Shown here: piece after piece, positions 30,547 through 51,648 of the stretch
How the letters are laid out: the number at the start of each line of letters is the position of its first letter
Numbering within the stretch: the stretch's first letter is position 1
Source: Sphingomonas sp. 32-62-10
GTDB taxonomy: Bacteria; Pseudomonadota; Alphaproteobacteria; Sphingomonadales; Sphingomonadaceae
Assembly: GCF_002280555.1 (NCBI RefSeq)
Contig: NZ_NCEE01000005.1
Span: forward strand, 55,019-119,018
Length of the DNA: 64,000 nucleotides
Direction of reading: 5' to 3'
Translations under genes and position numbers: made by a program
Notes under the pieces: model-generated
Seen by the model: the letters and a program-made list of their open reading frames with translations, nothing else
Databases searched by the model: none
Told to the model about the DNA's origin: nothing

Positions 30547-30664
30547 TTATTGAAGATCGGGATCGATACGAAATCTAAATGACAAAACTCATGCCCTCGA
30601 TCTTAGGAAATTGACAATTAACGCATTTATGGATAAATTTTTGTGATTAATTGTGGGTGATGCC

Positions 30665-31048
30665 ATGACTTTGAGGCTCGCGATCCTTTTTTCAGCAGTG
30701 GCGTTCCTTCCAGCGGTAAATCAACAACAACAACCGATTTCGGTGAAAGTTGAGCGGCCCATCGGCGTTGAGGCAAGCCGCTTTGTCCGTTATGTTCAAG
30801 GCGGCGGAAAACTAGCAAAGTCGGCCCATGATATTTTGATATTAGGCAACGTATTGTCGGTTCGGCAGGGAACGCCAACCGACACGATCATTCTTTCGAG
30901 CGATTCTTCGTCTGATCATCTTAAGGCAGAGGTGCAACATGACTGGCGTTTGCAACGCGGCAAGCTGGTCAGCATAGCCTGCCGACAGGTCAATGAGACC
31001 GGAAAGCTCGTTGTGGTTTCAAACTGCAGATTTGTGATCGCGGCTTAG
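30665..31048 (+). CDS. Orphan secreted hypothetical protein in a low-GC islet
   Basis: 127-aa ORF with signal-peptide-like N-terminus (MTLRLAILFSAVAFLPAV). It is visibly lower in GC than its flanks. No motif recognised. Confidence 0.45.
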   Translation: MTLRLAILFSAVAFLPAVNQQQQPISVKVERPIGVEASRFVRYVQGGGKLAKSAHDILILGNVLSVRQGTPTDTIILSSDSSSDHLKAEVQHDWRLQRGKLVSIACRQVNETGKLVVVSNCRFVIAA

Positions 31049-31064
31049 AGAAAGCTGGTCTTTT

Positions 31065-34422: not shown

Positions 34423-36837
34423 ATGTCGAGTGCACCCCGTTCGTTATCTGCCCACGACAATGGCATGGCGGCCCGGATCATGGATTTTGATTGGGCGTCG
34501 ACTCCGCTCGGCCCAATCGATGATTGGTCCCAACCACTGAGAACATCCGTCGCGATGTTGTGCGCCGCCGGTCTGCCGATTTGCCTGATATGGGGCAAGG
34601 AAGGCACGATGATCTATAATGATGGCTATGCTGAGATTGCCGGGAAACGGCATCCGCACATGCTGGGGTCGCGCATCATTGACGCTTGGCCGGAAGCGGC
34701 AGCGTTTAACGCCATGATTTTGCGCGAGGGGCTGGCGGGCAAATCACTGTCGTACCGCGATCTTGAATTCACGCTGACGCGCAATGGGGCACCTGAAAAG
34801 GCCTGGTTTAACCTCGATTATGCGCCCGTATTGGGAGAGGACGGTGCACCGGCAGCCATCATCGCTTTTGTAACCGAGACGACGGCGCGGGTGATGGATA
34901 CCCGGGCGCTGGAGCGCAGCGAGGCGCAATTCCGCGTCTTTGCGCAAGCAATGCCCAATCAGGTTTGGGCCGCGCGCGCAAACGGTGATCTCTATTGGCT
35001 GAACGCTCAGGCGTATGCCTATAGCGGGGCAGCAGTCGGCGATATGGACGGGCCATCAGCATGGGGCACCATTGTTCATCCTGACGATCTGCCGATTGCT
35101 GCCCAGCGCTGGACGGCCGCGCTGGCGACGGGCTCGATCTATGAAACCGAATTCCGCATCCGCCGCGCTGACGGCACTTATCGGTGGTTTCTTGTTCGCG
35201 CCGAACCGGTGCGCGATGCATCGGGTGAGGTTGCAAGCTGGGTCGGCACCAACACCGATATCCACGATATGCGTGAAACCGAAGCTGCGCTGCGCATTGC
35301 CAACGAAACGCTGGAGGAGCAGGTGCACGCCCGAACGGCTGAATTGCAGGCCAAGGAAGCGCGGCTCCGGACGGTCTTTGAGACGAGTTTCGGGTTTCAG
35401 GGTCTGCTTGATCCCGAGGGTCGGCTGCTTGATGCCAATGCGACCTCGTTAGCGGCAATCAATTGCGTGCTTGACGATATTGCGGGTCTCGCTTTCTGGG
35501 ACACCCCTTGGTTTGCCAATAATCCGGGTATGGACGAGGCGATCCGGCAAGCGGTGCAGACGGTGGCGGCCGGTGCCGTGGTTCGCCAGGAATTGCTGTT
35601 GAATCTGCCTGTCGGTGGTTGGCGCTGGTTTGATTTTGTGCTGCGTCCGATTTTCTCGGCGCAAGGTGACGTGATTGCGATTGTGCCCGAAGCTCAGGAA
35701 ACAACGGAACGCCGGACGGCGGAAGAAGCGCTGCGTCAGTCGCAAAAGCTGGAGGCGATGGGCCAGCTGACGGGCGGTGTCGCGCATGATTTCAATAATT
35801 TGTTGACCCCGATCATCGGCACGCTCGACTTGCTCAGCCGCCGGGAACTTGGCGGTGAACGCGAACGCCGTTTGATCGAGGGCGGGCTGCAATCGGCAGA
35901 GCGCGCGCGGATGTTGGTGCAGCGGCTGCTGGCCTTTGCACGTCGACAGCCGCTCCAGCCTCAGCCAGTGGACGTCGCGGCGTTGATCCGGTCGATGACT
36001 GATCTGATTGCAAGCACATCGGGCCCGCGTATTCGCATAGATTTGGCCATTGACGAACCGCTGCCCCCAGCGACGGCAGAGGTCAATCAGCTTGAAATGG
36101 CCTTGCTCAATCTGGCAGTGAATGCGCGTGATGCAATGCCGAGTGGCGGCAACCTGACGATCGGTGCTTCGGTTGTGACGCTGGCGGCGGATGCCCGGCC
36201 GGGTCTGGCCGCAGGGCGCTATGTGCGGATCACCGTCAGCGACACGGGCATTGGGATGGATGAGCACACATGTCGGCACGCTATCGAGCCGTTTTTCTCA
36301 ACCAAGGGGATTGGTAAGGGGACGGGGCTGGGCCTCTCGATGGTCCATGGGCTTGCCTCCCAGCTCGGCGGTGACCTCTCGATCGCAAGCAAGGTCGGGC
36401 TCGGGACGACCATCGAATTGCTGCTGCCCGTCTCCGACGCTGCCGTTATCCAGATCGATTCACCCGCTGAGGCTGCAGTGCTGGCGAGTAGCGTCGGAAC
36501 CGTGCTGTTGGTCGACGATGAAGAACATGTGCGGCAGACCACCGCCGATATGTTGAGCGAATTCGGCTATGACGTGATCGAGGCGGAATCGGGCGAAGAC
36601 GCCCTGGCGTTGCTCGGCAAGCGAGGGGTCGACTTGATTATTACCGATCATTTGATGGGCGGGATGACCGGCATGGCGCTGATTGAATTGGTGCGTACCG
36701 ACGTGCCCGATATGCCCGTGCTGGTCATCTCCGGCTATGCCGATGCGGCAGGCATTGCTGCAGACGTGCCCCGCCTCACCAAGCCGTTTCGCAGCGTTGA
36801 ACTGGCGGCAATGCTGGCGAGCCTTCGCCCTCATTGA
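34423..36837 (+). CDS. PAS-domain hybrid sensor histidine kinase with C-terminal receiver
   Basis: Multiple PAS modules, the HisKA H-box (GGVAHDFNNLLTPI), HATPase N/G boxes (NLAVNARDAM, DTGIGM, GKGTGLGLS) and a REC domain (VLLVDDE...DLIITDHLMGGMTG...KPF). Confidence 0.9.
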   Translation: MSSAPRSLSAHDNGMAARIMDFDWASTPLGPIDDWSQPLRTSVAMLCAAGLPICLIWGKEGTMIYNDGYAEIAGKRHPHMLGSRIIDAWPEAAAFNAMILREGLAGKSLSYRDLEFTLTRNGAPEKAWFNLDYAPVLGEDGAPAAIIAFVTETTARVMDTRALERSEAQFRVFAQAMPNQVWAARANGDLYWLNAQAYAYSGAAVGDMDGPSAWGTIVHPDDLPIAAQRWTAALATGSIYETEFRIRRADGTYRWFLVRAEPVRDASGEVASWVGTNTDIHDMRETEAALRIANETLEEQVHARTAELQAKEARLRTVFETSFGFQGLLDPEGRLLDANATSLAAINCVLDDIAGLAFWDTPWFANNPGMDEAIRQAVQTVAAGAVVRQELLLNLPVGGWRWFDFVLRPIFSAQGDVIAIVPEAQETTERRTAEEALRQSQKLEAMGQLTGGVAHDFNNLLTPIIGTLDLLSRRELGGERERRLIEGGLQSAERARMLVQRLLAFARRQPLQPQPVDVAALIRSMTDLIASTSGPRIRIDLAIDEPLPPATAEVNQLEMALLNLAVNARDAMPSGGNLTIGASVVTLAADARPGLAAGRYVRITVSDTGIGMDEHTCRHAIEPFFSTKGIGKGTGLGLSMVHGLASQLGGDLSIASKVGLGTTIELLLPVSDAAVIQIDSPAEAAVLASSVGTVLLVDDEEHVRQTTADMLSEFGYDVIEAESGEDALALLGKRGVDLIITDHLMGGMTGMALIELVRTDVPDMPVLVISGYADAAGIAADVPRLTKPFRSVELAAMLASLRPH

Positions 36838-36961
36838 CCTGGAAGAGAGGTTCGGCCTGGCAAGCGGATAGCGCGTGTTGCGCATCTGCCGGGACAACCT
36901 GTGCGAAATACCGTCTAACGACTAGTGGATTCGTCGCCGATCTTGGCTTAGTACCGCGCTC

Positions 36962-37687
36962 GTGCCGTCGATTCACGCCCTTGCCAATCCCGCGCGCTTT
37001 CTGAAGCTGGCGCGACCGCTGACCCCGGCATTGTTCTGGGCAGGTGTGGCGCTGATTGCGTTCGGCTGCTGGGCCGGGCTCACGCAGACCCCGGCGGATT
37101 ATCTGCAGGGCGAAACCGTCCGGATTCTTTATATCCATGTGCCGACCGCATGGCTTGGCATGGCCGGGTGGAGCGGTATCGCTGTTTCCAGCCTGACCTA
37201 TCTGATCTGGCGACACCCGCTCGCGATGCTCGCCGCGCGCGCAATGGCGCTCCCCGGCGCAATGTTTGCCGCATTGTGCCTCGCGACCGGGTCGATCTGG
37301 GGCCGCCCGACCTGGGGCACCTGGTGGGAATGGGACGGCCGGCTGACGTCGATGCTGTTGCTGTTCTTCGTCTATCTGGGATTCATGGGCCTTGCCCGCG
37401 CCGATGCCGATCGTGGCGGTGATGGCCGTATTCCGGCGCTGTATGGTATTGCCGGATCGGTGCTGCTGCCGATCATCCGCTATTCGGTGGTGTGGTGGAA
37501 CACGCTACATCAGGGGCAGAGCATCGGTATCAACAAGCAGACGATCGATGGTTCGCTCATCTGGCCGCTCTGGTACACGCTGGGAGGCTTTACCCTGTTT
37601 TTCGCCAGCATCGTGTTGATGCGAATGCGCGCAATGCTGGCGACGAGCAAGGCCGAAGCGCGGATGCGGCGGATGGCGCAGGCATGA
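36962..37687 (+). CDS. ccmC: Heme exporter protein CcmC
   Basis: WGxxWxWD tryptophan-rich motif (WGTWWEWDGRL). GTG start. Confidence 0.93.
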   Translation: MPSIHALANPARFLKLARPLTPALFWAGVALIAFGCWAGLTQTPADYLQGETVRILYIHVPTAWLGMAGWSGIAVSSLTYLIWRHPLAMLAARAMALPGAMFAALCLATGSIWGRPTWGTWWEWDGRLTSMLLLFFVYLGFMGLARADADRGGDGRIPALYGIAGSVLLPIIRYSVVWWNTLHQGQSIGINKQTIDGSLIWPLWYTLGGFTLFFASIVLMRMRAMLATSKAEARMRRMAQA

Positions 37688-37797
37688 ACCCGTGGCCGTT
37701 CGTCACCGCTGCTTATGTGATCACGCTGGTCACTTCCGCTGGTATTGCGCTGGTCAGCTATCTGGCGATGCGCGCCGCCGAAAAGGGCAGTAAATGA
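37684..37797 (+). CDS. ccmD: Heme exporter protein CcmD (37 aa)
   Basis: MNPWPFVTAAYVITLVTSAGIAL single TM. ATGA overlaps with both ccmC and ccmE. It falls below the track length cutoff as a separate ORF. Confidence 0.8.
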   Translation: MNPWPFVTAAYVITLVTSAGIALVSYLAMRAAEKGSK

Positions 37798-38252
37798 AAG
37801 CGAAGCATCACCGGTTGACCCTGGCCGTCCTCGCCATTGTCGCAATTGCAGGCGCAAGCGGGTTGGCGCTATCCGCGCTGAAGGACCAAGCGGCGTTTTT
37901 CTATGCACCGGGCGATGTCGCCAAGCAGGGCCTGCCGCTGGGGCGCGCGGTACGGCTGGGCGGGATGGTCGAGGGCGGATCGATCAAGAAACAGGCGGAC
38001 GGCGTGACGATCAAATTCGTCGTCACTGATGGTAAGGCGACCGTGCCTGTGACGTTCAGCGGCATCACGCCCGATCTGTTCAAAGAAAAATCGGGCGTGG
38101 TCGCAGAGGGCGAATTCCAGCCCGATGGCAGCTTCGTCGCCGATAATCTGCTCGCCAAGCATGACGAGCGCTACATGCCCCCCGAAATGGCGGGCAAGAT
38201 GGCGGCCAACATGCCGACCAAGATGCCATCCGGGAAAACATCACCACAATGA
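37794..38252 (+). CDS. ccmE: Cytochrome c heme chaperone CcmE
   Basis: N-terminal anchor, OB-fold and the heme-binding LAKHDERYMPPE (HxxxY) motif. Confidence 0.95.
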   Translation: MKAKHHRLTLAVLAIVAIAGASGLALSALKDQAAFFYAPGDVAKQGLPLGRAVRLGGMVEGGSIKKQADGVTIKFVVTDGKATVPVTFSGITPDLFKEKSGVVAEGEFQPDGSFVADNLLAKHDERYMPPEMAGKMAANMPTKMPSGKTSPQ

Positions 38253-40174
38253 TTGCCGAAGCGGGGCTCGCCGCACTCTGGATCGCTGCCGCGCTCGCGG
38301 CCTTGCAATTTGCGTTGGCTGCGCTTGGCGTCGCCCGGGGTGATCCCGATGTCATGAAGGCTGTCCGCCCGGTCGCGGTGGTGCAGGGCCTGGTCGTGAT
38401 GGGCGCGCTTGCCGTGCTGATGTGGCTGTTTATCCAGTCCGACATGTCGGTGCTGCTGGTCGCGCAGAACAGCCATTCCGCCAAGCCGCTGATTTACAAG
38501 ATCGCTGGCGCGTGGGGCAATCATGAAGGATCGATGCTGCTCTGGGTGACCATTCTGGGGATGGCCGGGGGCGCGGTGGCTATTCTCGAGCGCCGTTTGC
38601 AGCTGTCGACGTTGATCGCAACGCTTGGCGCGCAGGCTTTGATCGCGCTCGGTTTTTATGGCTTCCTGCTCTTCTCGTCGAACCCGTTTGCGCGGCTCAA
38701 CCCCGCGCCGGTCGACGGCAATGGTCTCAATCCGTTGCTGCAGGATCCTGGCCTCGCCTTCCATCCGCCCACGCTTTACATCGGCTATGTCGGCATTTCG
38801 GTGGCGTTCTCCTTCGCGGTCGGTGCGATGGTGACGCGCGATGTTGGCCCCGCCTTTGCGCGGGCAATGCGGCCCTGGGTGCTTGGCGCTTGGATTTTCC
38901 TGACGCTGGGCATTACCGCGGGCAGTTACTGGGCCTATTACGAGCTTGGCTGGGGCGGTTGGTGGTTTTGGGATCCGGTTGAAAACGCGTCGCTGATGCC
39001 ATGGCTTGCAGCGACCGCGCTGCTCCATTCGGTAACGGTGCTGGCAACGCGCGACGGTCTGCGTGCCTGGACGATCATGCTCGCCGTGGTGGCGTTCTCG
39101 ATGTCAATGATCGGCACGTTCCTGGTGCGATCGGGCATCCTGACCAGCGTGCACGCTTTCGCCGTCGATCCTGAACGCGGCAGTTTCATTCTGGCGTTGC
39201 TGGCGCTGTATATCGGTGGTGCCCTTGCGCTGTTTGCACTCCGCGTGAGTACGATCCGGGCGGGCAATACGTTTGAATTTGTCAGCCGCGAAGGCGCGTT
39301 GGTGGCCAATAATTTGCTGCTTTCTGTGATCCTTGGCATCGTGCTGATCGGCACGCTCTATCCGATCGTCGCGGCTGGGCTGTTCGGGCTGCAGCTGTCG
39401 ATCGGCCCTCCATTCTTCAACAAGGCTGCAGGTCCGGTTGCGCTGGCGCTGGTGATGATCATGGCCGTCGGGCCGCTGGTGCGCTGGCGGCGGGATGAGG
39501 CAGGGGCCATCACGCGCCGGATGCTGCTGCCAATCGCGGTGACGGTTGTGGCCCTGCTCGCGCTAGTCGTCTTCGCCGCCAATGCCGGTATTCTGCCGAT
39601 CCTGGGCCTGTGCCTTGCCGGTGGTCTTGCCGTGGCGAGCCTTGCTCCGTTGTGGAAGCGCAACCTGCGCCGCACGCCGTTGTTTACTTATGGCATGGTG
39701 CTCGCGCATTTGGGAATCGCCGTCAGCCTGGCGGGCATGGCATCCGAAACCGCCTTCACGCAGCAGACGCTGGTCGCTGCCACGGTTGGTGTCCCCGAGC
39801 GGGTGGGGCCGTACACGATTACGCTTGAGGGCATTACCCCACGCGCCGGGCCGAACTGGTCAGCGCTGGAGGCGCGGCTGAAGGTGCAGCGCGATGGGGG
39901 CACGGCGTTCACGATGACGCCCGAATCACGGTTTTTTTCGAACCCGGTTACGGTAACAAGCGAATCGGCGATCGCGACGGTTTTCGACGGTCAACTCTAC
40001 ACCGTGCTCGGCCAGCCTGATGAGGCCGGACGCTGGCAGTTGCGGCTGTGGTGGAAGCCATTTGTCACGCTGATCTGGGCGGGCGGCGGCATGATCGCGC
40101 TGGGGGGGCTGTTGTCGTTGATCGGTCGTGTCAGCCGTGATCGCAAGACGGCGTTGCGGGAGAGCTGGGCGTGA
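38249..40174 (+). CDS. ccmF: Cytochrome c heme lyase subunit CcmF
   Basis: 641-aa polytopic protein with the WGGWWFWDPVENAS WWD motif. Confidence 0.95.
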   Translation: MIAEAGLAALWIAAALAALQFALAALGVARGDPDVMKAVRPVAVVQGLVVMGALAVLMWLFIQSDMSVLLVAQNSHSAKPLIYKIAGAWGNHEGSMLLWVTILGMAGGAVAILERRLQLSTLIATLGAQALIALGFYGFLLFSSNPFARLNPAPVDGNGLNPLLQDPGLAFHPPTLYIGYVGISVAFSFAVGAMVTRDVGPAFARAMRPWVLGAWIFLTLGITAGSYWAYYELGWGGWWFWDPVENASLMPWLAATALLHSVTVLATRDGLRAWTIMLAVVAFSMSMIGTFLVRSGILTSVHAFAVDPERGSFILALLALYIGGALALFALRVSTIRAGNTFEFVSREGALVANNLLLSVILGIVLIGTLYPIVAAGLFGLQLSIGPPFFNKAAGPVALALVMIMAVGPLVRWRRDEAGAITRRMLLPIAVTVVALLALVVFAANAGILPILGLCLAGGLAVASLAPLWKRNLRRTPLFTYGMVLAHLGIAVSLAGMASETAFTQQTLVAATVGVPERVGPYTITLEGITPRAGPNWSALEARLKVQRDGGTAFTMTPESRFFSNPVTVTSESAIATVFDGQLYTVLGQPDEAGRWQLRLWWKPFVTLIWAGGGMIALGGLLSLIGRVSRDRKTALRESWA

Positions 40175-40698
40175 AGCGCGGGCTGCTCTGGGTCCCCCTC
40201 GTGGTGTTTCTGGGGTTGTTCGTGGTCGCGGGCTATGCGCTGATCAAGCCTGCTGATCGCACAGTGCGATCGGCAATGGTTGGTCGGCCGGTACCCGAAT
40301 TTTCTTTGCCGCCGATGCTGCCGGGCAAGCCTGGCCTTGACGCGGCCGTGTTTCGCCAAGGCAAGCCGCGCCTGCTGAATGTGTTCGCGAGCTGGTGCAT
40401 CCCGTGCGCAGCAGAGGCAGGGCAGCTCGAGCGGTTGCGCGCGATGGGCGTACCGATCGATGCCGTCGCGATCCGCGATCGGCCTGACGATATTCGAGGG
40501 TTTTTGGCGCGTTACGGCGATCCCTTTGAACGCATCGGCGATGATCCCGAAAGTGCCGTGCAACTGGCGCTTGGCTCGGCGGGCGTGCCGGAAACCTTCG
40601 TGATTGACGGGCAGGGCAAGATCATTCTCCAGCATGTCGGCGAAATCCGCGATGAGGATGTGCCCAAGATTCTCGAAGCGATGGGCAAATCGTCGTGA
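40171..40698 (+). CDS. ccmG: Thiol:disulfide oxidoreductase CcmG/DsbE
   Basis: Thioredoxin fold with WCIPC and the GVPETFVID motif. Confidence 0.93.
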   Translation: MKRGLLWVPLVVFLGLFVVAGYALIKPADRTVRSAMVGRPVPEFSLPPMLPGKPGLDAAVFRQGKPRLLNVFASWCIPCAAEAGQLERLRAMGVPIDAVAIRDRPDDIRGFLARYGDPFERIGDDPESAVQLALGSAGVPETFVIDGQGKIILQHVGEIRDEDVPKILEAMGKSS

Positions 40699-41111
40699 TG
40701 CGCTGGTTGATCGCACTGCTGTTGATGCTGGTGTCGACCGGCCCTGCATTCGCCGATTCGGCGCGCCCGCCAGCGCGGCTTTCCGACACCCAATTGCCCG
40801 ATCCAAAGCAGGAGGCAGAGGCGCAAAAGCTGATGCTGGAGCTGCGCTGCCTTGTCTGTCAGGGTCAGTCGATTGCCGACAGTAACGCCGAAATGGCAGG
40901 CGATATGCGCGCGCTGGTGCGCCGCCAGATTTCCGAAGGATCAAGCCCGCAACAGGTACGTGATTGGCTGATTGCGCGCTATGGAGATTATGTGACTTAT
41001 GATCCGCCCCTGTCGGCCGCGACTTTGCCGTTATGGATCACGCCGATTGCGTTCATCGTGATCGGTTTATGGCTGGCGCGGGCCAGCTTCAAACGACGGA
41101 AGCGCGTCTGA
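40695..41111 (+). CDS. ccmH: Cytochrome c biogenesis protein CcmH/CycL
   Basis: LRCLVCQGQSIADS (LRCxxCQ) motif and a C-terminal TM. Confidence 0.92.
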   Translation: MMRWLIALLLMLVSTGPAFADSARPPARLSDTQLPDPKQEAEAQKLMLELRCLVCQGQSIADSNAEMAGDMRALVRRQISEGSSPQQVRDWLIARYGDYVTYDPPLSAATLPLWITPIAFIVIGLWLARASFKRRKRV

Positions 41112-41788
41112 TGGGTTGGGCCATGCTGATCGGGATCGCTCTCGCGGCGGCCGCGCTGCTCTGGCGGCTAGGGGTGCCGCGCGTGTTATGGACGTCGAGC
41201 GCTGCGGCGCTTGTGTTCGGCGCGGCCGGTTATGCGCTGCAGGGATCGCCAAGCCTGCCTGCCAGCCCGGCCAAGGGCCAGATCTCGAAACTTGATGTGG
41301 CTGCCGACATTGTCGAACTTCGGGGCGCCTTTTTCGGGCGTTTTACCCAGGATGCCGCGTACCAGACAGCGGCTGACGCGATGATCCGCAGCAATGATTC
41401 AGCCGCCGCCGTCAAGGTGACATTGGGGGGTATCGACCGTATTCCCAAAAGCGTGCCGCTCTGGACTGAACTTGGCAGCGTGCTCGTCAAGCATGATGGT
41501 GGCAATGTTTCTCCAGCCGCGCTATTTGCATTCCGGCGGGCGATGTTCATCGCACCGCGTCATCCCGGGCCGCCCTTTTTCCTGGGGCTCGGCTATGCTC
41601 AGTCGGGCCAGTTGCAAAATGCACGGTTCTGGTGGCGGCGCTCGCTCGAGCTTTCGCCGCCCGGCGCGAGTTACCGCACCGCGATTCAAGAACGGCTGAT
41701 GCTGCTCGATCAGTTCATCATGATGAGCCAGCAACAGGGCCAGGGTGGTGCTCCAGCAATGCCGCCCGCTACGGCGCCTGCGCCTTAG
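41111..41788 (+). CDS. CcmI/CycH-like membrane-anchored TPR protein
   Basis: Two N-terminal TM helices and a helical-repeat C-terminus. It is the last gene of the ccm operon, starting at a TGATG overlap. Confidence 0.55.
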   Translation: MGWAMLIGIALAAAALLWRLGVPRVLWTSSAAALVFGAAGYALQGSPSLPASPAKGQISKLDVAADIVELRGAFFGRFTQDAAYQTAADAMIRSNDSAAAVKVTLGGIDRIPKSVPLWTELGSVLVKHDGGNVSPAALFAFRRAMFIAPRHPGPPFFLGLGYAQSGQLQNARFWWRRSLELSPPGASYRTAIQERLMLLDQFIMMSQQQGQGGAPAMPPATAPAP

Positions 41789-41791
41789 GCG

Positions 41792-42262
41792 CTAGGCAAA
41801 TGGCCTATTGAGCCGAACGATCGCCCAGTTAAGCCAGGCAGCAAAGCTGACCCAGAGCAGATAAGGCACGATCAACAGGCTGGCGAAAGACGAGATCGGC
41901 CAGATCAGCGCCACCAGCAGCACCAGTGATACCCAAAGGAACACGACCTCCACCAGCGCCCAATCGGGCCGCTGCGCGCGGAAGAACAGCGGGCTCCATA
42001 AGAAATGGCAGACTGCGTTGGTTGAAAAGAGGCACAGCACGCGGCTGCGTTCCCAATTCTGGTCGGCGGCATACCAAGCAATGATCGCCGACCAGGCGGC
42101 AAGCCCCAATATGATCGTCCAGGCAGGGCCGAACAGCCAATCGGGGGGCTGCAGACTTGGTTTTTTCAGGTTGCGATACCAAGGGCCGATCGGGGTCATC
42201 AGCCCGCCAGCTGCCCCGAGGAAAACGGCGCCGCCAATGCCCACGATTACGGGTGTTTCCAT
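41792..42262 (-). CDS. tspO: TspO/MBR tryptophan-rich sensory protein
   Basis: Five TM segments, Trp-rich, with WFxxLxKPSxxPP-type motif (WYRNLKKPSLQPPDWLFGPAWTI). Classic PGC-associated gene. Confidence 0.9.
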   Translation of the reverse strand: METPVIVGIGGAVFLGAAGGLMTPIGPWYRNLKKPSLQPPDWLFGPAWTIILGLAAWSAIIAWYAADQNWERSRVLCLFSTNAVCHFLWSPLFFRAQRPDWALVEVVFLWVSLVLLVALIWPISSFASLLIVPYLLWVSFAAWLNWAIVRLNRPFA

Positions 42263-42290
42263 GTTGTTCCGCCTAGCCCGTCTTGTGGAG

Positions 42291-42308
42291 TGTCAAACAA
42301 CTGGTACA
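42291..42308. promoter_or_regulatory. TGT-N12-ACA palindrome (PpsR/CrtJ-type site) in the tspO-bchI divergent region
   Basis: TGTCAAACAACTGGTACA lies 9 nt upstream of the bchI ATG 42317. Confidence 0.5.
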
Positions 42309-42316
42309 CGCAAAGG

Positions 42317-43231
42317 ATGCGAGCGTCCTTCCCATTCTCCGCCATCGTCGGCCAAGACGAAATGAAATTAGCCCTGCTGATCGCCGCGATTGATGCGCGG
42401 ATCGGGGGCGTGATGGTGTTCGGTGATCGCGGCACCGGCAAATCGACTGCGGTGCGTGCACTGGCTGCCTTGTTGCCGCCGATGCCGGTTGTTCCCGGCT
42501 GCCGTTATGGCTGCGCACCCGGCCAGGCGGTTTGCCCGACGCCCGAAACGCACCGACCCGGCAAAGCGAGTGCGCCAGTACCGTTCGTCGATCTGCCGCT
42601 GGGGGCGACCGAGGACCGCGTCGTGGGCGCGCTCGATCTCGAAAAGGCGCTTGGCCACGGCGAGAAGGCCTTTGAGCCGGGGCTGCTCGCCCGCGCGCAT
42701 CGCGGCTTTTTGTACATCGTGCGACACGCGGCGCGCTTCGTGCTTGTCGGCAGCGGTAACCCCGAAGAGGGCGAGCTTCGTCCGCAGTTGCTCGATCGGT
42801 TCGGGCTATCGGTGGAGGTGCGGACCCCGCAGGACCTGAAGCAGCGCGTCGAAATCCTGAAGCGATGCGATGCTTATGAACGCACGCCCGACAGCTTTGC
42901 CAAGGAATGGGTGAAGGCCGAGCGCAAGACGCTGAAGCGGATCGCCAAGGGCAAGGAATTGCTTGCCGAGGTGGTGGTGCCGGATGCGGTGCTGACGCGG
43001 GCGTCGGAACTGTGCATCGCGGTGGGCGCGGATGGGTTGCGCGGCGAATTGACCCTGATGCGGTCGGCGCGGGCGCTGGCGGCGCTGGAGGGCGATGTGC
43101 AGGTGACCGAGACGCATCTGAAGCGCGTCGCGCCGCTGGCGCTGCGCCACCGGTTGCGCCGAAACGTGCTCGACGAAACCGGATCGACCGCGCGGATCGA
43201 ACGCGCAATGGAAACCATGTTCGCGGCATGA
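42317..43231 (+). CDS. bchI: Mg-chelatase ATPase subunit BchI, apparently lacking the Walker B segment
   Basis: FPFSAIVGQDEMK, Walker A GDRGTGKST, GSGNPEEGELRPQLLDRFGL and DGLRGELTL are present. However, RGFLYI runs directly into VRHAARFVLVG, where the family has IDE.NLL...VEREG.S. ATG 42317 is preceded by AAAGGA. Confidence 0.9.
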   Translation: MRASFPFSAIVGQDEMKLALLIAAIDARIGGVMVFGDRGTGKSTAVRALAALLPPMPVVPGCRYGCAPGQAVCPTPETHRPGKASAPVPFVDLPLGATEDRVVGALDLEKALGHGEKAFEPGLLARAHRGFLYIVRHAARFVLVGSGNPEEGELRPQLLDRFGLSVEVRTPQDLKQRVEILKRCDAYERTPDSFAKEWVKAERKTLKRIAKGKELLAEVVVPDAVLTRASELCIAVGADGLRGELTLMRSARALAALEGDVQVTETHLKRVAPLALRHRLRRNVLDETGSTARIERAMETMFAA

Positions 43232-44988
43232 CGGAAGCGGGCGACATGCCGCCCCCCATGCAATCCGATATCTGGTCGGATGCGTTGCTGGCGGCGCGGC
43301 TATGCGCGATCGATCCCTCGCTTGGCGGGCTCGTGCTGCGGGGCGGCGGCGAAGCACGCGATGCCGTGATCGCCGCGCTGGTCGAAGGGCTCGGCGCGGG
43401 CGTGCCGGTGCGGCGGGTGCCATCGCATATCGATGATGAGCGGCTGTTGGGCGGGCTCGATTTGGGCGCGACATTGTCGACCGGGCGGGCGGTATCGCGG
43501 GTAGGCTTGCTGGCAGAGGCCGATGGCGGCGTGGTGATCGTGCCGATGGCCGAGCGAATGGCGAGCAGCACTGCGTCGCCGATTGCCGCTGCGCTCGATA
43601 CCGGAGAGGTAATCGCCGAGCGCGAGGGTATGGCGCTGCGCTCGCCAGCGCGCATCACGGTGGTGTTGCTCGACGACGGGGTGGAGCTTGATGAGCGCCC
43701 GCCGGTGGCGCTGGCCGAGCGGTTGGCGTTCTGGTTTGATTTCGGTGACGTGCGGACAGCCCTTGGGGCTGATCCGGACAATGCTGGTTCGGCGCCGACA
43801 CCAATCGGTAGCGACGTCACTGCTGCGCCTTCCTCTGATATTCTCGAGGCGATCGCCGCCACCACGTTGGCGCTGGGAATCGATTCGGCGCGTGCACCAA
43901 TCTTCGCGCTGCGTGCAGCGCGCGCGGCAGCAATACTGGCGGGTCGTTCCGTCATTACCGAGGATGACGTGATGATCGCTGCACGGCTGGTGCTCGGCCC
44001 GCGGGCCACACGGATGCCTGCGCCGCCCGAGGCCGAACCCGAGGGCGAAGCGCCCGAACCGCCACCACCACCGCCGCCCGAGTCGGAAACGAGCGAGCAG
44101 GAAAGCGGCGATCCGCAGCCGCTGGAGGATGTGGTGCTCGAAGCCGTGCTCGCCTCGCTGCCGAAGGACGTGCTCGCGCAGATTGCGGCAGGCGGGCAGC
44201 GGCGCGGACCACAGGGGCGGGGGCAGGGCAAGGGCGCGAAGCAGAAGTCCGCCACGCGTGGTCGCCCGGTCGGGGTGCGTGCCGGCATCCCGCGCGGCGG
44301 GCTTCGGCTCAGCCTGATTGATACGCTGCGATCGGCGGCGCCCTGGCAGCGCGTGCGCGGCGCAGAGGCTGGCCGGGTCAACATCCGCCGCGACGATCTG
44401 CGAATCCGCCGGTTCGAAAAAAAGATGGAGGCGACGACGATCTTCGCCGTCGACGCGTCGGGATCATCGGCGCTGGCGCGGCTTGCCGAGGCGAAGGGCG
44501 CGGTCGAGCTGTTGCTGGCGGAGGCCTATGTGAAGCGCGCGCAGGTGGCGCTAGTGGCATTTCGCGGGACGGTGGCGGAATTGATTTTGCCGCCGACTCG
44601 CTCGCTGGCGCGCGCGCGCAAGTCGCTCGGGGCCTTGCCCGGTGGTGGTGGCACGCCGCTCGCTTCGGGCCTGAATGCCGCGCGTGAACTCGCCGAAGCG
44701 GCACGCAAGCGCGGGCGCACGCCGTTTTTGGTGATCCTCACCGACGGCCGCGCCAATATCTGCGCCAAGGGCACGATGGTTCGTCAGGCCGCCGAGGATG
44801 ATGCCGAAGCCGCCGCCAAGGCGATCGGCCTGTCAGGCATCGGCAGCGCGTTCGTCGATATCTCGCCGCGCCCCCGGCCCGAGGGTGCAAAGCTCGCCGC
44901 AATCATGGGCGCGCGCTATCTGCCCTTGCCTCGCGCCGATGCCCGGGCGATGCACGCCGCCGTCAAGGGAGCGCAACATGCTGACTGA
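43228..44988 (+). CDS. bchD: Mg-chelatase subunit BchD
   Basis: N-terminal AAA-like domain, acidic Pro-rich linker (PEPPPPPPPESETSEQE) and C-terminal vWA domain with MIDAS (FAVDASGSS). ATGA overlap with bchI. Confidence 0.93.
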   Translation: MTEAGDMPPPMQSDIWSDALLAARLCAIDPSLGGLVLRGGGEARDAVIAALVEGLGAGVPVRRVPSHIDDERLLGGLDLGATLSTGRAVSRVGLLAEADGGVVIVPMAERMASSTASPIAAALDTGEVIAEREGMALRSPARITVVLLDDGVELDERPPVALAERLAFWFDFGDVRTALGADPDNAGSAPTPIGSDVTAAPSSDILEAIAATTLALGIDSARAPIFALRAARAAAILAGRSVITEDDVMIAARLVLGPRATRMPAPPEAEPEGEAPEPPPPPPPESETSEQESGDPQPLEDVVLEAVLASLPKDVLAQIAAGGQRRGPQGRGQGKGAKQKSATRGRPVGVRAGIPRGGLRLSLIDTLRSAAPWQRVRGAEAGRVNIRRDDLRIRRFEKKMEATTIFAVDASGSSALARLAEAKGAVELLLAEAYVKRAQVALVAFRGTVAELILPPTRSLARARKSLGALPGGGGTPLASGLNAARELAEAARKRGRTPFLVILTDGRANICAKGTMVRQAAEDDAEAAAKAIGLSGIGSAFVDISPRPRPEGAKLAAIMGARYLPLPRADARAMHAAVKGAQHAD

Positions 44989-45871
44989 TCGCGCGCGCTG
45001 GGATGTCGAGGGGCGTGACTGGCCCAACCGGGCGCAGAGCCGGTTCGTCACGACCGACCGGGTCAAATGGCATGTCCAGGTGATGGGCAGCGGGCCGGTG
45101 ATCCTGCTGATCCACGGCACCGGCGCGGCAACCCATAGCTGGCGTGAACTGATGCCGTTGCTGGCGGCGCATTTCACCGTTGTGGCTCCCGATATGCCAG
45201 GGCATGGCTTCACTGTCGGTCGACCCCTGGGTGGCTTGTCGATGGGCGCGATGGCGCGGGCGGCGGGTGCGTTGCTTGCCGAACTGCAACTCGAGCCTGC
45301 GCTCATCATTGGCCATTCCGCGGGGGCGGCAATCGCGGCGCGGATGGTACTCGACGGGCTTGTAGCGCCGACGGGGGTAATCGGCCTGAATGCTGCGCTT
45401 CAGCCTTTTCCCGGGCTTGCCGCCAAGATGTTTCCCACGCTTGCCCGGATGCTGTTCGTCAACCCTTTTGCGCCGCACATCTTCGCCGGCATCGCCCGCC
45501 AGCGCGGTGAGGCGGGGCGGTTCCTCGCGCGCAGCACGGGGTCAAAGATCGATGCAGCGGGGGCTGACTTCTATGGTCGGCTGTTCGCCACGCCCGCCCA
45601 TTGCGCGGGAGCGATTACCATGATGGCCGACTGGGACCTCGAGTCGCTGGCGCGCGATTTGCCGCGCCTGTCGGTGCCGTTGCTGCTGGTGCATGGCGAT
45701 GACGATGCGGCGATCCCGCTGGCGAGCGCTCAGGCTGCCGTTGCACAGGTGACCGGCGCACAGATCATCAGCTTGCCGGGATTGGGGCATCTGGCGCATG
45801 AAGAGCAGCCGGGGGCGATCGCTGATCGGATCATCGGGTTTGCGCGGGCAATAGGGGTGATGGCAGCATGA
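44978..45871 (+). CDS. bchO: Alpha/beta hydrolase BchO (Mg-chelatase accessory protein)
   Basis: ILLIHGTGAATHSW and GHSAGAA nucleophile elbow. Position after bchD. The start overlaps the bchD 3' end by 11 nt. Confidence 0.85.
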   Translation: MLTDRARWDVEGRDWPNRAQSRFVTTDRVKWHVQVMGSGPVILLIHGTGAATHSWRELMPLLAAHFTVVAPDMPGHGFTVGRPLGGLSMGAMARAAGALLAELQLEPALIIGHSAGAAIAARMVLDGLVAPTGVIGLNAALQPFPGLAAKMFPTLARMLFVNPFAPHIFAGIARQRGEAGRFLARSTGSKIDAAGADFYGRLFATPAHCAGAITMMADWDLESLARDLPRLSVPLLLVHGDDDAAIPLASAQAAVAQVTGAQIISLPGLGHLAHEEQPGAIADRIIGFARAIGVMAA

Positions 45872-46029
45872 TCGGCGACAATATCGGATTACTCGAAATG
45901 GGCCTGGTGCTGGGGCTGACGCTAGTCTTCCTGGTCTACCAATATTGGTCGACTGGCCGCTCGATCGCCCGCGACAAAGCTGCGCGGGAGCGCGCCGCGA
46001 ACAGCGCCCCGAGCGACTCGCAGCAATAA
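45868..46029 (+). CDS. Unlisted 53-aa single-TM ORF translationally coupled to bchO
   Basis: ATGA overlap with the bchO stop. Translation is MIGDNIGLLEMGLVLGLTLVFLVYQYWSTGRSIARDKAARERAANSAPSDSQQ, with one hydrophobic helix and a basic tail. Third-position GC is high, like real genes here. Confidence 0.5.
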   Translation: MIGDNIGLLEMGLVLGLTLVFLVYQYWSTGRSIARDKAARERAANSAPSDSQQ

Positions 46030-46039
46030 GGCAATCGCC

Positions 46040-47098
46040 TCAAAGGATCGCGCGGGGCATCCTGAAGGGCAGCATTGCCTGCACGATCGGCGAGCGGAAC
46101 CGCCCCAGCGACAGGCTTTCATGCACCGCGTGCACGTCTTCTCCGAATAGCCGCGTTGAAAGGGCAGAGCGCGCATAAAAGGGCGCATCGACCCACGTCT
46201 TGGTCACCTTTGGCCGGAAATCGGCATCGGCGCGGGTCAGCCGATCGACCAGCCAGCCCGATCGCGGCAGCTTGGCGGCAGGCGGTTGCATCACATCATG
46301 CCAACGGCCCTGACGATCCATCTTCAATGCGAGATCAAACGGGGTGCCGTCACGGCGCGTGCCTTCGTACAGCACCGCGACATCGTTCTTCAGGTGCGCG
46401 CGCGACCAGTGCCAGTCGTTGAAGCCTTCCTCCAGCGCTTCCTCACCGAAGTTCGAATCGAAATAGCCGCTGCCGTTCCAGCTGATTTCGGGATTGTTCA
46501 TCGTCACTTCCACGCGCGCGCGCGGGGCCACGGGATGCCAGCGATGCTTGCCGGCATTGTCGAGGTGGAAACCGGTCGTCCCGATCATGTCGGGATAGAC
46601 GCGCACCTGCCCGCGCACCGGATAGGGAAGCGGTGCCGATGTTTCGTTGATGTCGATGAGCAGCGAATTGCCGTCCCAATGCAGCCCGCTAGGTCCGACG
46701 ATGAAGTTGTCCGCATCGCGGCGGACGCGGTGCCAGGGGCGTTCGGTCATCGCCCACGCATTGCCGCGCGGGCCGTTCATCGACACGTTGATCGAACAGT
46801 GATTGGCCGGGCTGTGGCGGCCGCTGAGCTTGTAATAGGGTGAAAAGACGCTGCCGATGAAAGCGATGATGGTCAGACCGAAGCGGCCGTCGTCGCTGCA
46901 GGCGTCGATGTACCACCAGGCATAGCCCTGCGCATCGACTTCGACGTCGAAGCGAGGTCCTTGAGCAGGATATCGACGGCTAATCCGCCGCTGAGGGCTG
47001 CCATCGGCACGCCGGCGCCCGGGTGGGTGCTCCCGCCCGCGCAATAGATACCAGGGATCGCTGTCCGGGCGCCCTGCCGGCGGAAGGACGCCGCCCAT
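46040..47098 (-). CDS. crtC: Carotenoid 1,2-hydratase CrtC (hydroxyneurosporene synthase)
   Basis: PRFDVEVDAQGYAWWYIDA...TIIAFIGSVFSPYY...DAPFYARS motifs. Recognisable homology begins near 46957. The start is uncertain: ATG 47098 is the first in-frame ATG, and TTG 47044 is also possible. Confidence 0.85.
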   Translation of the reverse strand: MGGVLPPAGRPDSDPWYLLRGREHPPGRRRADGSPQRRISRRYPAQGPRFDVEVDAQGYAWWYIDACSDDGRFGLTIIAFIGSVFSPYYKLSGRHSPANHCSINVSMNGPRGNAWAMTERPWHRVRRDADNFIVGPSGLHWDGNSLLIDINETSAPLPYPVRGQVRVYPDMIGTTGFHLDNAGKHRWHPVAPRARVEVTMNNPEISWNGSGYFDSNFGEEALEEGFNDWHWSRAHLKNDVAVLYEGTRRDGTPFDLALKMDRQGRWHDVMQPPAAKLPRSGWLVDRLTRADADFRPKVTKTWVDAPFYARSALSTRLFGEDVHAVHESLSLGRFRSPIVQAMLPFRMPRAIL

Positions 47099-48429
47099 CC
47101 GTGCGAGGCCCGTCCATAAAGGGCTCCACCCGTCGAGGGAAACAGGCTCTCGAACGTTGCCGGAGTCGACAGCACCGTTGCCGATGGCGGAAGCTCCAGC
47201 GTAAGGCCCGCTCGCTCCGTAATCTGCAGCATCCGCGATTGGCATTGATTGATCTCCGCTTCGGTAAATCCGGGCCCGTCGCCATTGGCGGGGGCATTGA
47301 CGAGAATTTGCAGGCGTTCGCGCCCGTCCGGCCCCACGCCGCGATCGTCGCGGTCCTGCGCGCAGATATAGACGGTGGGAACGGAGGGCAGGCGGCCGGC
47401 CGCCAGATCGACGAACTCGGCTTCGTAATCGTTGGAAAAAAACACATTATGGTGTGCCAGCGGAAAGCCGCTGGTGGTGGTGTGGGCGGTCCACACCATG
47501 GCGCCGAACGATCGCTCAGACGGGGTCATGCCCGCCACAGCGCTGCTCACCGCTGCTCCGAACCGTCCCTCGGCAATCGCCGCCGGATCGGCGTTGCAGA
47601 TGATCGTCGGCGCGGTCAGGCGCTCGCCACTGGCGAGGACCACGCCCGCAGCGTGACCCTGTTCGACCAAAATCTCGCGGACGGGCTCGCCATAGCGATA
47701 GCGCGCGCCATTGGCCTTGCCGATTGCTTCCAGCCCGCGGGCAAGCGCGTGCATCCCCCCATCGACCAGCCAAACACCGCGCGCCTCGACATGTGCAATC
47801 AGCATCAATGTGCCGGGGCATTGAAAGGGGGAGGAGCCGCAATAGGTCGAATAGCGCCCGAACAGCTGGCGCAGACGCGGATCAGCGAAATAATCACCAA
47901 GCGCGCCCCATAAGGTCTGGAAGGGGCGGGTGGTGAGAAGGTCAGCGGGGTTGGCCTTGCCCATTTCCCAGGCCAGCCGCACCGGGCCTGCGCGCTGGCT
48001 GCGCAGGAAGGGCTTTTGCAGCGAGGTGAAGATTTGCTTCGCTTCCGCACAGAACCGGCGATAGCCATCCGCTGCATCGGCACCGGCGAATTCAGCGATT
48101 GCTGCTTCGCTTTTAGCGCGATCGGCGAAGAGATCGAGCCGATCATCACCCCAGGCATGGCGCGCTAGCGTGGTGCTGGGGGTAAGCTTGACGTGATCGT
48201 CGAGCGACGCGCCGCAGCGATCGAAAATTTCTTCGAACACCTCACGCATGGTGAATACGGTTGGACCACCGTCTACTAGTGCACCACCCGAATCGACCTG
48301 GCGCATCTTGCCGCCCGGAGCATTCGCCGCTTCGATGACCGTCACATCCAAGCCGCGCGCAGAGAGCAGGGCTGCACTGGTCAACCCTCCCACGCCGGCC
48401 CCGATGACGATTACCTTTTCGCGCTGCAT
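46873..48429 (-). CDS. crtD: Hydroxyneurosporene/methoxyneurosporene desaturase CrtD (phytoene-desaturase family)
   Basis: FAD motif KVIVIGAGVGGLTSAALLSARG and C-terminal GGSTHPGAGVPMAALSG. ATG 48429 gives MQREKVIV. Confidence 0.9.
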   Translation of the reverse strand: MQREKVIVIGAGVGGLTSAALLSARGLDVTVIEAANAPGGKMRQVDSGGALVDGGPTVFTMREVFEEIFDRCGASLDDHVKLTPSTTLARHAWGDDRLDLFADRAKSEAAIAEFAGADAADGYRRFCAEAKQIFTSLQKPFLRSQRAGPVRLAWEMGKANPADLLTTRPFQTLWGALGDYFADPRLRQLFGRYSTYCGSSPFQCPGTLMLIAHVEARGVWLVDGGMHALARGLEAIGKANGARYRYGEPVREILVEQGHAAGVVLASGERLTAPTIICNADPAAIAEGRFGAAVSSAVAGMTPSERSFGAMVWTAHTTTSGFPLAHHNVFFSNDYEAEFVDLAAGRLPSVPTVYICAQDRDDRGVGPDGRERLQILVNAPANGDGPGFTEAEINQCQSRMLQITERAGLTLELPPSATVLSTPATFESLFPSTGGALYGRASHGWAASFRRQGARTAIPGIYCAGGSTHPGAGVPMAALSGGLAVDILLKDLASTSKSMRRAMPGGTSTPAATTAASV

Positions 48430-48444
48430 TCCGGCCTTTCGAGC

Positions 48445-48483
48445 GTTGAGCAAGTCGATGGCAATTGACGCCCCCTGCTCAAC
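48445..48483. promoter_or_regulatory. Inverted repeat in the crtD/crtF divergent intergenic region
   Basis: Perfect 8-bp arms GTTGAGCA-N23-TGCTCAAC inside the 73-bp spacer between the crtD ATG and the crtF ATG. An inner GTC-N10-GAC is also present. Confidence 0.4.
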
Positions 48484-48502
48484 CGTCCAACTAATTGGAC
48501 AT

Positions 48503-49633
48503 ATGAAACCGTCCACAACCAAAGACAATAGCTCTTGGCGGGAACGCTGGGTCGCCGCGCGCAACCGGGTGCTTGCCGATCCGGGTTTTCAGCATTTTGC
48601 GGCTCGCTTTTTTCTTACTCGACCGATCGTGCGCAGCAAGGCGCGCACGATGTTCAATCTGGTCGCGGGCTTCACCTATTCGCAGGTGATTGCGGCGTGC
48701 ATCGAGGTGAAACTGCTCGACCTGCTGGCCGATGGCGCGCGCGATCTGGACGATATCGCCGTGCAGATCGACATGCCGCGCGAGGCTGCCGACCGATTGC
48801 TGCGCGCCGCTGCCTCGATCGGGCTGGTCGAGCGACTCGGCGCGGAGCGATGGGCACTGGGTGGGGACGGCGCAGCACTGCGCGGCAACCGCGGCATTGC
48901 CGAAATGGTGGCGCATCACCGGCTGCTTTATGCTGATCTCGCCGATCCGGTGGCACTGCTGCGGCGCGGGGCGGGGGGTGGCCAGCTGTCCAATTACTGG
49001 ACCTATGCCGAATCGGTTGGGCAGGGGGAGGGGCATGAGGTTGCCGCCTATTCCGGGCTGATGGCGGCATCGCAGCCGCTGATCGCGACTCATGTGATCG
49101 ACAGCTATGATTTTACGCGGCACCGCCGGATGCTCGATGTGGGCGGCGGGCAGGGGGCATTCATCGCCGCTGTTGCCGCGCGGGTGCCGGCGATCACGCT
49201 TGGGCTGTTCGATCTGCCAGCCGTGGGCGAGCGCGCCCGCATCGCACTGGATGCCGCGGGATATGGGCCGCGCGTGACGATTCACGGTGGCAACTTCCTC
49301 GATGATGCGCTGCCCGGAGGGCATGATCTGATCACTTTGATCCGCGTGCTGCACGATCATGACGATGCACCGGCACTGCAATTGCTGCGCAACATTCGCG
49401 CGGCGCTGCCGCCTGGCGGACGTCTGCTGATCGCTGAACCTATGGCCGAAACGCCGGGCGCGGAGTCCGCTGGCGACGGCTATTTCGGCATGTATCTCTG
49501 GGCGATGGGGTCAGGCCGGCCGCGCAGCATGAAAGAGATCGCATCGATGCTGAAGGCGGCCGGGTTCAGCGCTACCAAGCGCGTCCCGACACCCTTGCCG
49601 CTGACGGTGAGTGCGATTGTGGCTGAAGCTTGA
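48503..49633 (+). CDS. crtF: Demethylspheroidene O-methyltransferase CrtF
   Basis: Dimerisation/winged-helix N-terminus and SAM motif LDVGGGQGAF. Position between crtD and bchC. Confidence 0.9.
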   Translation: MKPSTTKDNSSWRERWVAARNRVLADPGFQHFAARFFLTRPIVRSKARTMFNLVAGFTYSQVIAACIEVKLLDLLADGARDLDDIAVQIDMPREAADRLLRAAASIGLVERLGAERWALGGDGAALRGNRGIAEMVAHHRLLYADLADPVALLRRGAGGGQLSNYWTYAESVGQGEGHEVAAYSGLMAASQPLIATHVIDSYDFTRHRRMLDVGGGQGAFIAAVAARVPAITLGLFDLPAVGERARIALDAAGYGPRVTIHGGNFLDDALPGGHDLITLIRVLHDHDDAPALQLLRNIRAALPPGGRLLIAEPMAETPGAESAGDGYFGMYLWAMGSGRPRSMKEIASMLKAAGFSATKRVPTPLPLTVSAIVAEA

Positions 49634-49653
49634 CGGCAAAGCGTCCAGAACAG

Positions 49654-49685
49654 TTGACAATAAAAAGTGTCCATATAGGATGACA
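49654..49685 (+). promoter_or_regulatory. Candidate bchC promoter with overlapping TGT-N12-ACA (PpsR/CrtJ-type) site
   Basis: TTGACA (49654-49659), 16-nt spacer, TAGGAT (49676-49681). The palindrome TGTCCATATAGGATGACA (49668-49685) covers the -10 region. Confidence 0.55.
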
Positions 49686-49735
49686 CAAGAGGCGAAGAAT
49701 CCCGTCAAGCATTGGGATCGCCGGGGGAGTGCACG

Positions 49736-50665
49736 TTGGAAACGCTGGCCGTCATTTTGGAAGCTCCGGAAACGCTATCACTGCGTTCCATGGCGCTGAA
49801 TCCGATGGCACCGGGCGATTTACTCGTGGAAGTCGCCTGGAGCGGGATCAGCGCGGGTACCGAAAAACTGCTATGGTCGGGCCGGATGCCGGCTTTCCCG
49901 GGCATGGGCTATCCGCTGGTGCCGGGATACGAATCGGTTGGCCGCGTCGTCGACGCAGGGGCTGAGGCGCATTCGCGAATCGGTGAGTGGGTTTTTGTCC
50001 CGGGGGCCAATTGCTACACCCATGCACGCGGGCTTTTCGGCGGGACGGCACGGCGGGTGATCCTGCCTGCGGCCCGCGCCATGCCGGTCGACGAATCGCT
50101 GGGCGAAGCGGGCATTCTGATTGCGCTTGCTGCCACCGCCTATCACGCGATCGTCGGTGGGCAGGCGCCCGATCTGATTGTCGGTCACGGCATATTGGGC
50201 CGCTTGATCGCACGGATTGTCGTCGCGGTCGGTGCGCCGCCACCGACGGTGTGGGAAACCGCCGCCGCGCGCCGGGTGGGTGACTTCGGCTACCGGGTGA
50301 TCGATCCATCGGAAGATGATCGCAAAGACTATAAGACGATCTGTGATGCCAGCGGTGCCGGGAGCATCCTGGACACACTGATCGGTCGGCTTGCCAAGGG
50401 TGGTGAGGTGGTGCTCGCGGGCTTCTACGACAAGCTGACTTTTTCCTTTCCGCCCGCCTTCATGCGTGAAGCGCGGCTGCGGATATCAACCGAGTTTGTC
50501 ATCGAGGATCTGCGGGCGACCGCGGCGTTGGTCGATGGCGGTGCACTGAGCTTGAAGGGTCTGGTGAGCCATGTGCGGCCAGCTGGTGAGGCCGTTGAAG
50601 CCTATCCCGCCGCCTTTGGCGACCCGGAATGCCTGAAAATGGTTCTCGACTGGAGAAGCGAATGA
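49736..50665 (+). CDS. bchC: Bacteriochlorophyllide a dehydrogenase BchC
   Basis: ETLAVILEAPE...GISAGTEKLLWSGRMPAFPGMGYPLVPGYESVG. TTG 49736 is preceded by GGGGAG. The track start TTG 49712 is also possible. Confidence 0.9.
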   Translation: METLAVILEAPETLSLRSMALNPMAPGDLLVEVAWSGISAGTEKLLWSGRMPAFPGMGYPLVPGYESVGRVVDAGAEAHSRIGEWVFVPGANCYTHARGLFGGTARRVILPAARAMPVDESLGEAGILIALAATAYHAIVGGQAPDLIVGHGILGRLIARIVVAVGAPPPTVWETAAARRVGDFGYRVIDPSEDDRKDYKTICDASGAGSILDTLIGRLAKGGEVVLAGFYDKLTFSFPPAFMREARLRISTEFVIEDLRATAALVDGGALSLKGLVSHVRPAGEAVEAYPAAFGDPECLKMVLDWRSE

Positions 50666-51645: not shown

Positions 51646-51648
51646 TCG

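Follow-up and report, generated by a model that had tools for sequence, protein, structure and literature searches.

An in-frame gap over the Walker B block of bchI in Sphingomonas sp. 32-62-10 is probably a local assembly error

P-loop ATPases share a Walker B motif in which an aspartate coordinates Mg2+ and a glutamate is catalytic. Loss-of-function alleles of bchI and chlI, which encode the ATPase subunit I of Mg-chelatase, are known from cultured organisms (for example, the barley xantha-h / chlorina ChlI mutants), and most of these are point mutations or nulls. The AAA+ clade 7 features that we used are the H2 insert, the PS1 hairpin, and the pre-sensor-2 arrangement, and our names for secondary-structure elements and inserts (helix alpha-4, PS1 insert i3) follow PMC10653834. 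A precedent of another kind comes from Chen, Anantharaman, Shaiber, Eren and Banfield (2020; PMC7111523), who described local assembly errors, 13 per 1.13 Mb in their example.

Here we describe a bchI gene from Sphingomonas sp. 32-62-10, a metagenome-assembled genome (MAG). The window (the whole stretch of DNA that we analysed, 64,000 nucleotides) has a GC content of 61.9% and contains no Ns. The record title of another MAG in the series (28-67-8, 04302015_28_scaffold_428) shows that such names begin with the number of the sample, and it would fit the pipeline of the Chen et al. laboratory; the middle number of 32-62-10 agrees with the GC content. Going by naming conventions, the coverage of this MAG would be low, at about 10x, and what we take to be its assembler and curation history has the same basis. 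Upstream of bchI are a cytochrome c maturation operon (ccm) and the divergent gene tspO (41792-42262, minus strand), and this tspO / bchI-bchD-bchO context is common to other sphingomonad phototrophs. The deposited BchI shares with the BchI of Rhodobacter capsulatus (PDB 1g8p) the Walker A motif, insert i1 with its cysteine residues, the H2 insert region, sensor 1, the arginine finger, the AAA lid, and sensor 2. Unlike 1g8p, and unlike the alleles in other assemblies of the same strain, it has no equivalent of residues 151-181, which include the Walker B Asp-Glu, helix alpha-4, and PS1 insert i3.

The deposited bchI and its gene cluster

The bchI gene (42317-43231, plus strand) has 304 codons and a stop, and its product is a Mg-chelatase ATPase subunit I without 31 central residues. 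Across the junction, which lies between nucleotides 42718 and 42719, the translation reads ...HRGFLYI|VRHAARFVLVGSGNPEEG..., and the loss is exactly 93 bp (31 codons), in frame. When we compared the protein to the PDB with phmmer, it matched R. capsulatus BchI in two pieces (E = 2e-105): residues 2-134 align to chain residues 18-150 and residues 135-300 to chain residues 182-347. Chain residues 151-181 are left without a counterpart, and with them the Walker B Asp-Glu, the helix after Walker B, and the PS1 hairpin.

The missing block is nearly invariant in related proteins. In all 15 orthologues that we aligned (alignment A1), 31 residues of the form DE(I/V)NLLEDH(I/L)...(V/L)VEREGLS sit between ...GFLYI and VRHAARF... 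The Walker B Asp-Glu occupies columns 147-148 of this alignment and is present in 15 of the 15 and absent from the deposited BchI, which has no hhhhDE motif because FLYI runs straight into VRH. The PS1 beta-hairpin insert (i3), which follows helix alpha-4 and is one of the features of AAA+ clade 7, falls inside the missing 31 residues as well.

The motifs on either side of the junction are intact. The Walker A or P-loop codons (42422-42448, plus strand; G36-D-R-G-T-G-K-S-T44) fit the pattern GxxGxGKS/T, are invariant in alignment A1, and align to 1g8p. The C-terminal part (42719-43228, plus strand) retains sensor 1 on strand beta-4 (GSGN148), the arginine finger (LLDR161FG), the AAA lid (AAA_lid_2, E = 9.5e-17), and sensor 2 (GLR242GEL). 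N148, R161, and R242 line up with residues 195, 208, and 289 of 1g8p, at an offset of 47, and we take those R. capsulatus residues to have the sensor 1, arginine finger, and sensor 2 roles.

The NCBIfam family TIGR02030 has a curated cutoff of 466.95 bits and requires a contiguous match to its 337-position profile. The deposited BchI reaches 390 bits in two stretches, the best of which covers profile positions 169-336. It is because of this score below the cutoff that RefSeq labels the protein only as an "ATP-binding protein". With the 93 bp present, alleles of the same strain reach 485.6 and 489.2 bits, in one piece, over positions 1-336 of 337.

At the junction there is a microhomology of 2 bp (C-G), and we found no repeats longer than 8 nt nearby. 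There is no displaced copy of the missing 93 bp anywhere in the window, and no second bchI within its 64 kb.

The gene next to bchI is bchD (43228-44988, plus strand), whose start overlaps the bchI stop (ATGA), so that bchI has the expected context, immediately before bchD in a photosynthesis gene cluster. bchD is full length (586 amino acids) and scores 685 against NF009943 (cutoff 571), across positions 4-583 of 585. The remaining cluster (44978-64000) is intact and comprises bchO, crtC, crtD, crtF, bchCXYZ, pufBALMC, a DUF4336 gene, hemA, puhE, acsF, puhC, puhB, and part of puhA; the edge of the window cuts the cluster at the start of puhA. Those cluster genes that have an NCBIfam model matched it over its full length, nearly all of them above the cutoff. 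(crtC is full length but does not reach a cutoff that is specific to Rhodobacter, and crtF matches the model of a related methyltransferase only weakly and in part.) Across about 22 kb of photosynthesis genes, we saw no other sign of decay.

Two small features of the cluster are worth recording. Between bchO and crtC lies a 53-codon open reading frame (45868-46029, plus strand; MIGDNIGLLEMGLVLGLTLVFLVYQ...) that probably encodes one transmembrane helix; it is also a called gene in GCA_027311925.1 (contig L002) and in contig L092, and no family hit is recorded for it. The DUF4336 gene (58410-59159, minus strand), between pufC and hemA, has no NCBIfam match and is kept in the sibling strain 28-62-11.

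These results bear out what the original prediction, which was made from the sequence alone, had described. It had placed an in-frame loss of the Walker B and central segment, roughly 30 residues, at 42718/42719, and the position is exact. It had described the open reading frame as shorter than a typical BchI, and indeed the product has 304 amino acids against 335 in other assemblies of the same strain. The regions that it read as present (Walker A, the sensor and arginine finger regions, and the C-terminal domain) align to 1g8p, to the orthologues, and to AAA_lid_2, and for the genes inside the window, the family models agree that bchD, bchO, bchCXYZ, puf, and puh are otherwise intact. It had also proposed aligning the protein to the family model and to orthologues, and both comparisons confirm a gap over Walker B, with TIGR02030 split in two and the block present in 15 of 15 orthologues. 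It is also sound in inferring that a protein of this kind would have no ATPase activity.

The same gene in other assemblies of the strain

To find further assemblies of the strain, we searched with the exact protein sequence of TspO. This look-up returned four other contigs: L002, a 73-kb contig of GCA_027311925.1; L003, from Sphingomonas sp. 12-62-6, which belongs to the same project as 32-62-10; L004, from GCA_027308375.1; and L005, which is a contig from Logan (run SRR5352531). The bchI gene has 335 codons in L002, L003, and L004 (in L004, the gene runs off the contig and only 334 are called). All three have the 93 bp (GATGAAATCAACCTG...GGGTTGAGC) at the position of the junction (42718/42719, plus strand), as seen with blastn and in alignment A3. 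Outside the 93 bp, 912 nt of the gene remain for comparison; wherever these align, L003 and L004 match the window at the nucleotide level with 100% identity, and L002 is identical too except for a mosaic patch of 20 nt (42698-42717, plus strand). This patch lies directly to the left of the junction and contains 8 substitutions, which change H to N and F to Y. It is similar to the alleles of co-occurring Sphingomonas (L006 and L007). (The patch turns HRGFLYI into NRGYLYI and ends 3 nt before the junction.)

The agreement extends well beyond bchI. The window is 100% identical to L002 over 42718-48169 and 99.91% identical over 35792-42697. Compared to GCA_027311925.1, it is 99.83% identical over 46173-64000 with no indel of more than 1 nt, and all 31 differences are in hemA (59858-60319). 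Compared to 12-62-6, it is 99.91% identical over 13838-33262, free of gaps. The comparable sequence thus consists of 13838-33262 and 35792-64000, or about 47.6 kb, and across it, at 99.8-100% identity, the bchI gap is the window's only indel of more than 1 nt.

Two of the places where the assemblies differ have a structure of their own. The 31 differences in hemA fall within 460 bp, with 100% identity over about 13.7 kb on the upstream side and 3.7 kb on the downstream side; either recombination has brought in a tract from a related strain, or the assembly is chimeric here. In ccmG (40554-40576), the window differs from L002, L003, and L004 by a fully synonymous patch of 23 nt that includes a compensated pair of 1-nt indels and leaves the protein unchanged (SAVQLALGS).

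Because other assemblies of the same strain have the 93 bp and are nearly identical to the window over tens of kilobases, the organism has a normal bchI: as judged from these assemblies, the strain evidently carries an ordinary gene of 335 codons.

We also looked for the junction elsewhere. The 304-amino-acid protein has an exact match in OYX40244.1 / WP_374139670.1 (Sphingomonas sp. 32-62-10), and it forms a singleton cluster among about 15 billion proteins. A search with a 74-amino-acid peptide that spans the junction returned only short proteins, none of which has the junction; this is a weak negative, as P0001 itself was not returned. Exact look-ups of the 304-amino-acid product, of a 313-amino-acid version with a GTG start, and of a guessed 212-amino-acid partial product gave no records in an index that does not hold the window's own contig. 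In the JGI metagenome contigs, a collection from which the strain is absent, neither a 35-mer across the junction nor the undeleted allele was found. A scan of genome contigs gave relatives at 93% identity or less, and the source species was not among them.

Gaps in sister assemblies and how the junction might have arisen

The window's bchI is not the only damaged gene of this kind. The MAG 12-62-6 lacks 105 bp of bchD (window 44186-44290), which encode 35 conserved residues, so that its BchD (OYW21535.1) has 551 amino acids. It also lacks 232 bp of ccmG (window 40283-40514, plus strand), which causes a frameshift there. Both segments are present in the window and in GCA_027311925.1. In 28-63-12, BchD (P0130, OYY72684.1) is missing 26 conserved N-terminal residues. 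In 28-66-16, a "hypothetical protein" of 871 amino acids (P0126, OYY91458.1) consists of BchI fused to full-length BchD, and its BchI part covers profile positions 1-288 of 337, with the C-terminus absent. In total, there are five different gaps of about 80-230 bp in four MAGs from one project, all in the ccmG-bchI-bchD stretch, and the window has every segment that the sister MAGs lack. For three of the gaps (bchI of the window and both gaps of 12-62-6), the strain has a second assembly to compare, and each time it contradicts the gap. Public records probably contain more assembly errors, namely the two gaps of 12-62-6 in bchD and ccmG, and the BchD gap of 28-63-12 and the fusion of 28-66-16 are probably artefacts of the same kind. 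(Scrambled bchI sequences occur in other short-read assemblies too: P0225, a Logan protein of 114 amino acids from an unrelated assembly, is a mangled BchI-like fragment with several internal gaps.)

Two findings thus speak for an assembly error: independent assemblies of the strain do have the missing segment, and comparable defects are found elsewhere in sister assemblies from the same pipeline. The gaps lie at different places in the sister MAGs, which is the pattern of a pipeline artefact rather than of four independent and simultaneous knock-outs. We therefore consider it quite probable, on comparison of the sequences, that the 93-bp gap in bchI arose as a local error when this short-read MAG was assembled at low coverage, and we infer that no reads in the source sample would support it.

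Several related Sphingomonas populations co-occur in the samples and have the gene order ccm-tspO-bchID in common. 28-62-11 is about 98% identical to the window over the compared regions (96.8-99.1%), and other co-occurring relatives are 28-62-20, 28-63-12, and 28-66-16. Short mosaic patches are found across the assemblies in ccmG, bchI, and hemA. Identity to 28-62-20 is about 91% within the missing block as compared to 84% over the whole gene, and an exact run of 26 nt shared with 28-62-20 (gene nucleotides 475-500) crosses the right edge of the gap. The Logan contig from SRR5352531 is identical to the window and stops at 42622, beside a strain SNP at 42628.

The error would probably have arisen as follows. 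In co-occurring populations that share the ccm-tspO-bchID arrangement, the missing block is the most conserved part of bchI, so that its k-mers are partly common to the populations, and there are strain-specific forks on either side of it. At a coverage of about 10x, an assembler would then have linked the strain-specific flanks wrongly and passed over the stretch in common. The patch in L002 marks such an assembly-graph fork, 3 nt to the left of the gap. A gap bounded by strain forks is in the kind of place where a low-coverage graph mis-joins.

The original prediction had offered three explanations (a strain that is non-pigmented or losing phototrophy, a second copy of bchI or chlI, or a segment collapsed by the assembly). 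The last of these has gained from the three same-strain assemblies with the 93 bp and from the gaps in the sister MAGs, and the loss of phototrophy, which was its headline, is now less favoured. An assembly fault is favoured, but "collapsed" is the wrong word: there is no repeat to collapse, and an error here would be a local mis-join. We rejected a repeat-mediated collapse because the longest repeated word near the site is 8 nt.

Some observations pull the other way. The junction is clean, in frame, and free of Ns and repeats, which counts against an assembly error, as does the finding of only one defect in 47.6 kb of the window. Taken by itself, the junction is neutral evidence, since a real deletion by illegitimate recombination would look alike. 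Its being in frame is a weak argument for biology, because one deletion in three is in frame by chance and such cases are preferentially noticed and annotated; the ccmG gap of 12-62-6 is out of frame.

Other readings and comparison with known systems

The strongest alternative to a local assembly error is a real and very recent loss-of-function allele in the population of sample 32, which arose by an illegitimate-recombination deletion of 93 bp. BchI would then bind ATP without hydrolysing it, and Mg-chelatase and bacteriochlorophyll synthesis would be dead in an otherwise untouched cluster. We think that this is rather unlikely, although the clean in-frame junction with 2 bp of microhomology speaks for it, as does the presence, within the deleted block, of the motif that AAA+ proteins need for ATP hydrolysis. 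The window's own synonymous patch in ccmG and its patch in hemA also suggest that it may represent a distinct sub-strain, and the other assemblies may come from other samples, which leaves room for a deletion allele that is specific to sample 32. The difficulty is that three other assemblies of the same strain have the 93 bp in a gene that does not otherwise differ (apart from the patch in L002). Furthermore, about 22 kb of photosynthesis genes would have escaped decay, and the short form is seen just once in the protein collection. The deletions in the sister MAGs are equally drastic and include the ccmG frameshift, so several independent and recent knock-outs would be needed. The preserved frame helps little, given that chance alone keeps it in a third of cases and that deletions of this sort are the more readily noticed.

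If the deletion were real, then the rest of the cluster, which matches the assemblies of the intact strain, would imply that the event was extremely recent and confined to one sample. The protein would be a null or possibly a dominant-negative ATPase subunit, and Mg insertion would be blocked. With Walker B lost, and with it the sole crossover connection between strands beta-3 and beta-4 of the core sheet, it would at best be a hydrolysis-dead binder of ATP and would more likely be misfolded. Extended to the sister MAGs, the idea becomes that co-occurring natural populations of aerobic anoxygenic phototrophic Sphingomonas are just now disabling their Mg-chelatase, by deletions in bchI and bchD that arose independently in different populations and samples. 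We regard this as unlikely; if true, it would be the first step in the loss of phototrophy, with the rest of the cluster still pristine. A real deletion would be a modest and neat case of a wild population that is beginning to lose bacteriochlorophyll synthesis, rather than a new kind of system.

Two further readings, which even jointly are very unlikely, would have the strain remain phototrophic or the short protein work. In one of them, the short BchI is real and another bchI- or chlI-type gene elsewhere in the genome provides the ATPase. Sphingomonas and Novosphingobium do have BchI-like paralogues of 321-327 amino acids that are about 80% identical to BchI (P0045 and P0058), but the 64-kb window holds no second copy, such paralogues are not known to work with BchD or BchH, and the reading presupposes a real deletion, which the same-strain assemblies oppose; we consider it highly improbable. 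(P0045, P0058, and similar proteins are annotated as "ATP-binding proteins", do not have the cysteine-rich insert i1, and come from apparently non-phototrophic hosts.) It is barely conceivable that BchI functions in this short form, as a natural variant that does without a canonical Walker B: the preserved frame is all that favours it, while the 31-residue block is nearly invariant in 15 of 15 orthologues, all other homologues listed have at least 313 amino acids (apart from one fragment), hardly anything would be left between strands beta-3 and beta-4 of the ATPase core, and the TIGR02030 score is below the cutoff.

With a local assembly error as the preferred explanation, the bchI gap is most likely not novel biology, and the main value of the case is as a caution. 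OYX40244.1 / WP_374139670.1 stands in GenBank, RefSeq, and UniRef as a BchI without Walker B. The truncated BchD and the BchI-BchD "fusion" of the sister MAGs are public records as well, and the fusion could pass for natural. To infer a loss of phototrophy, odd AAA+ architectures, or gene fusions from such records would probably be misleading.

Unlike the barley ChlI mutants, the short bchI was found in an uncultured population, and other assemblies of its strain contradict it. It stands closer to the errors described by Chen and colleagues (PMC7111523), with differences. Theirs were generally unsupported sequence and errors in repeat number, not specifically clean deletions free of repeats, and their defining test is that no read supports the sequence perfectly, whereas the bchI gap was judged by comparing assemblies. 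The frequency is of the same order, with one in 47.6 kb here and roughly one per 50-90 kb there. As in their cases, a short wrong consensus would sit in an otherwise correct scaffold of a low-coverage MAG, among related strains, and it is absent from independent assemblies.
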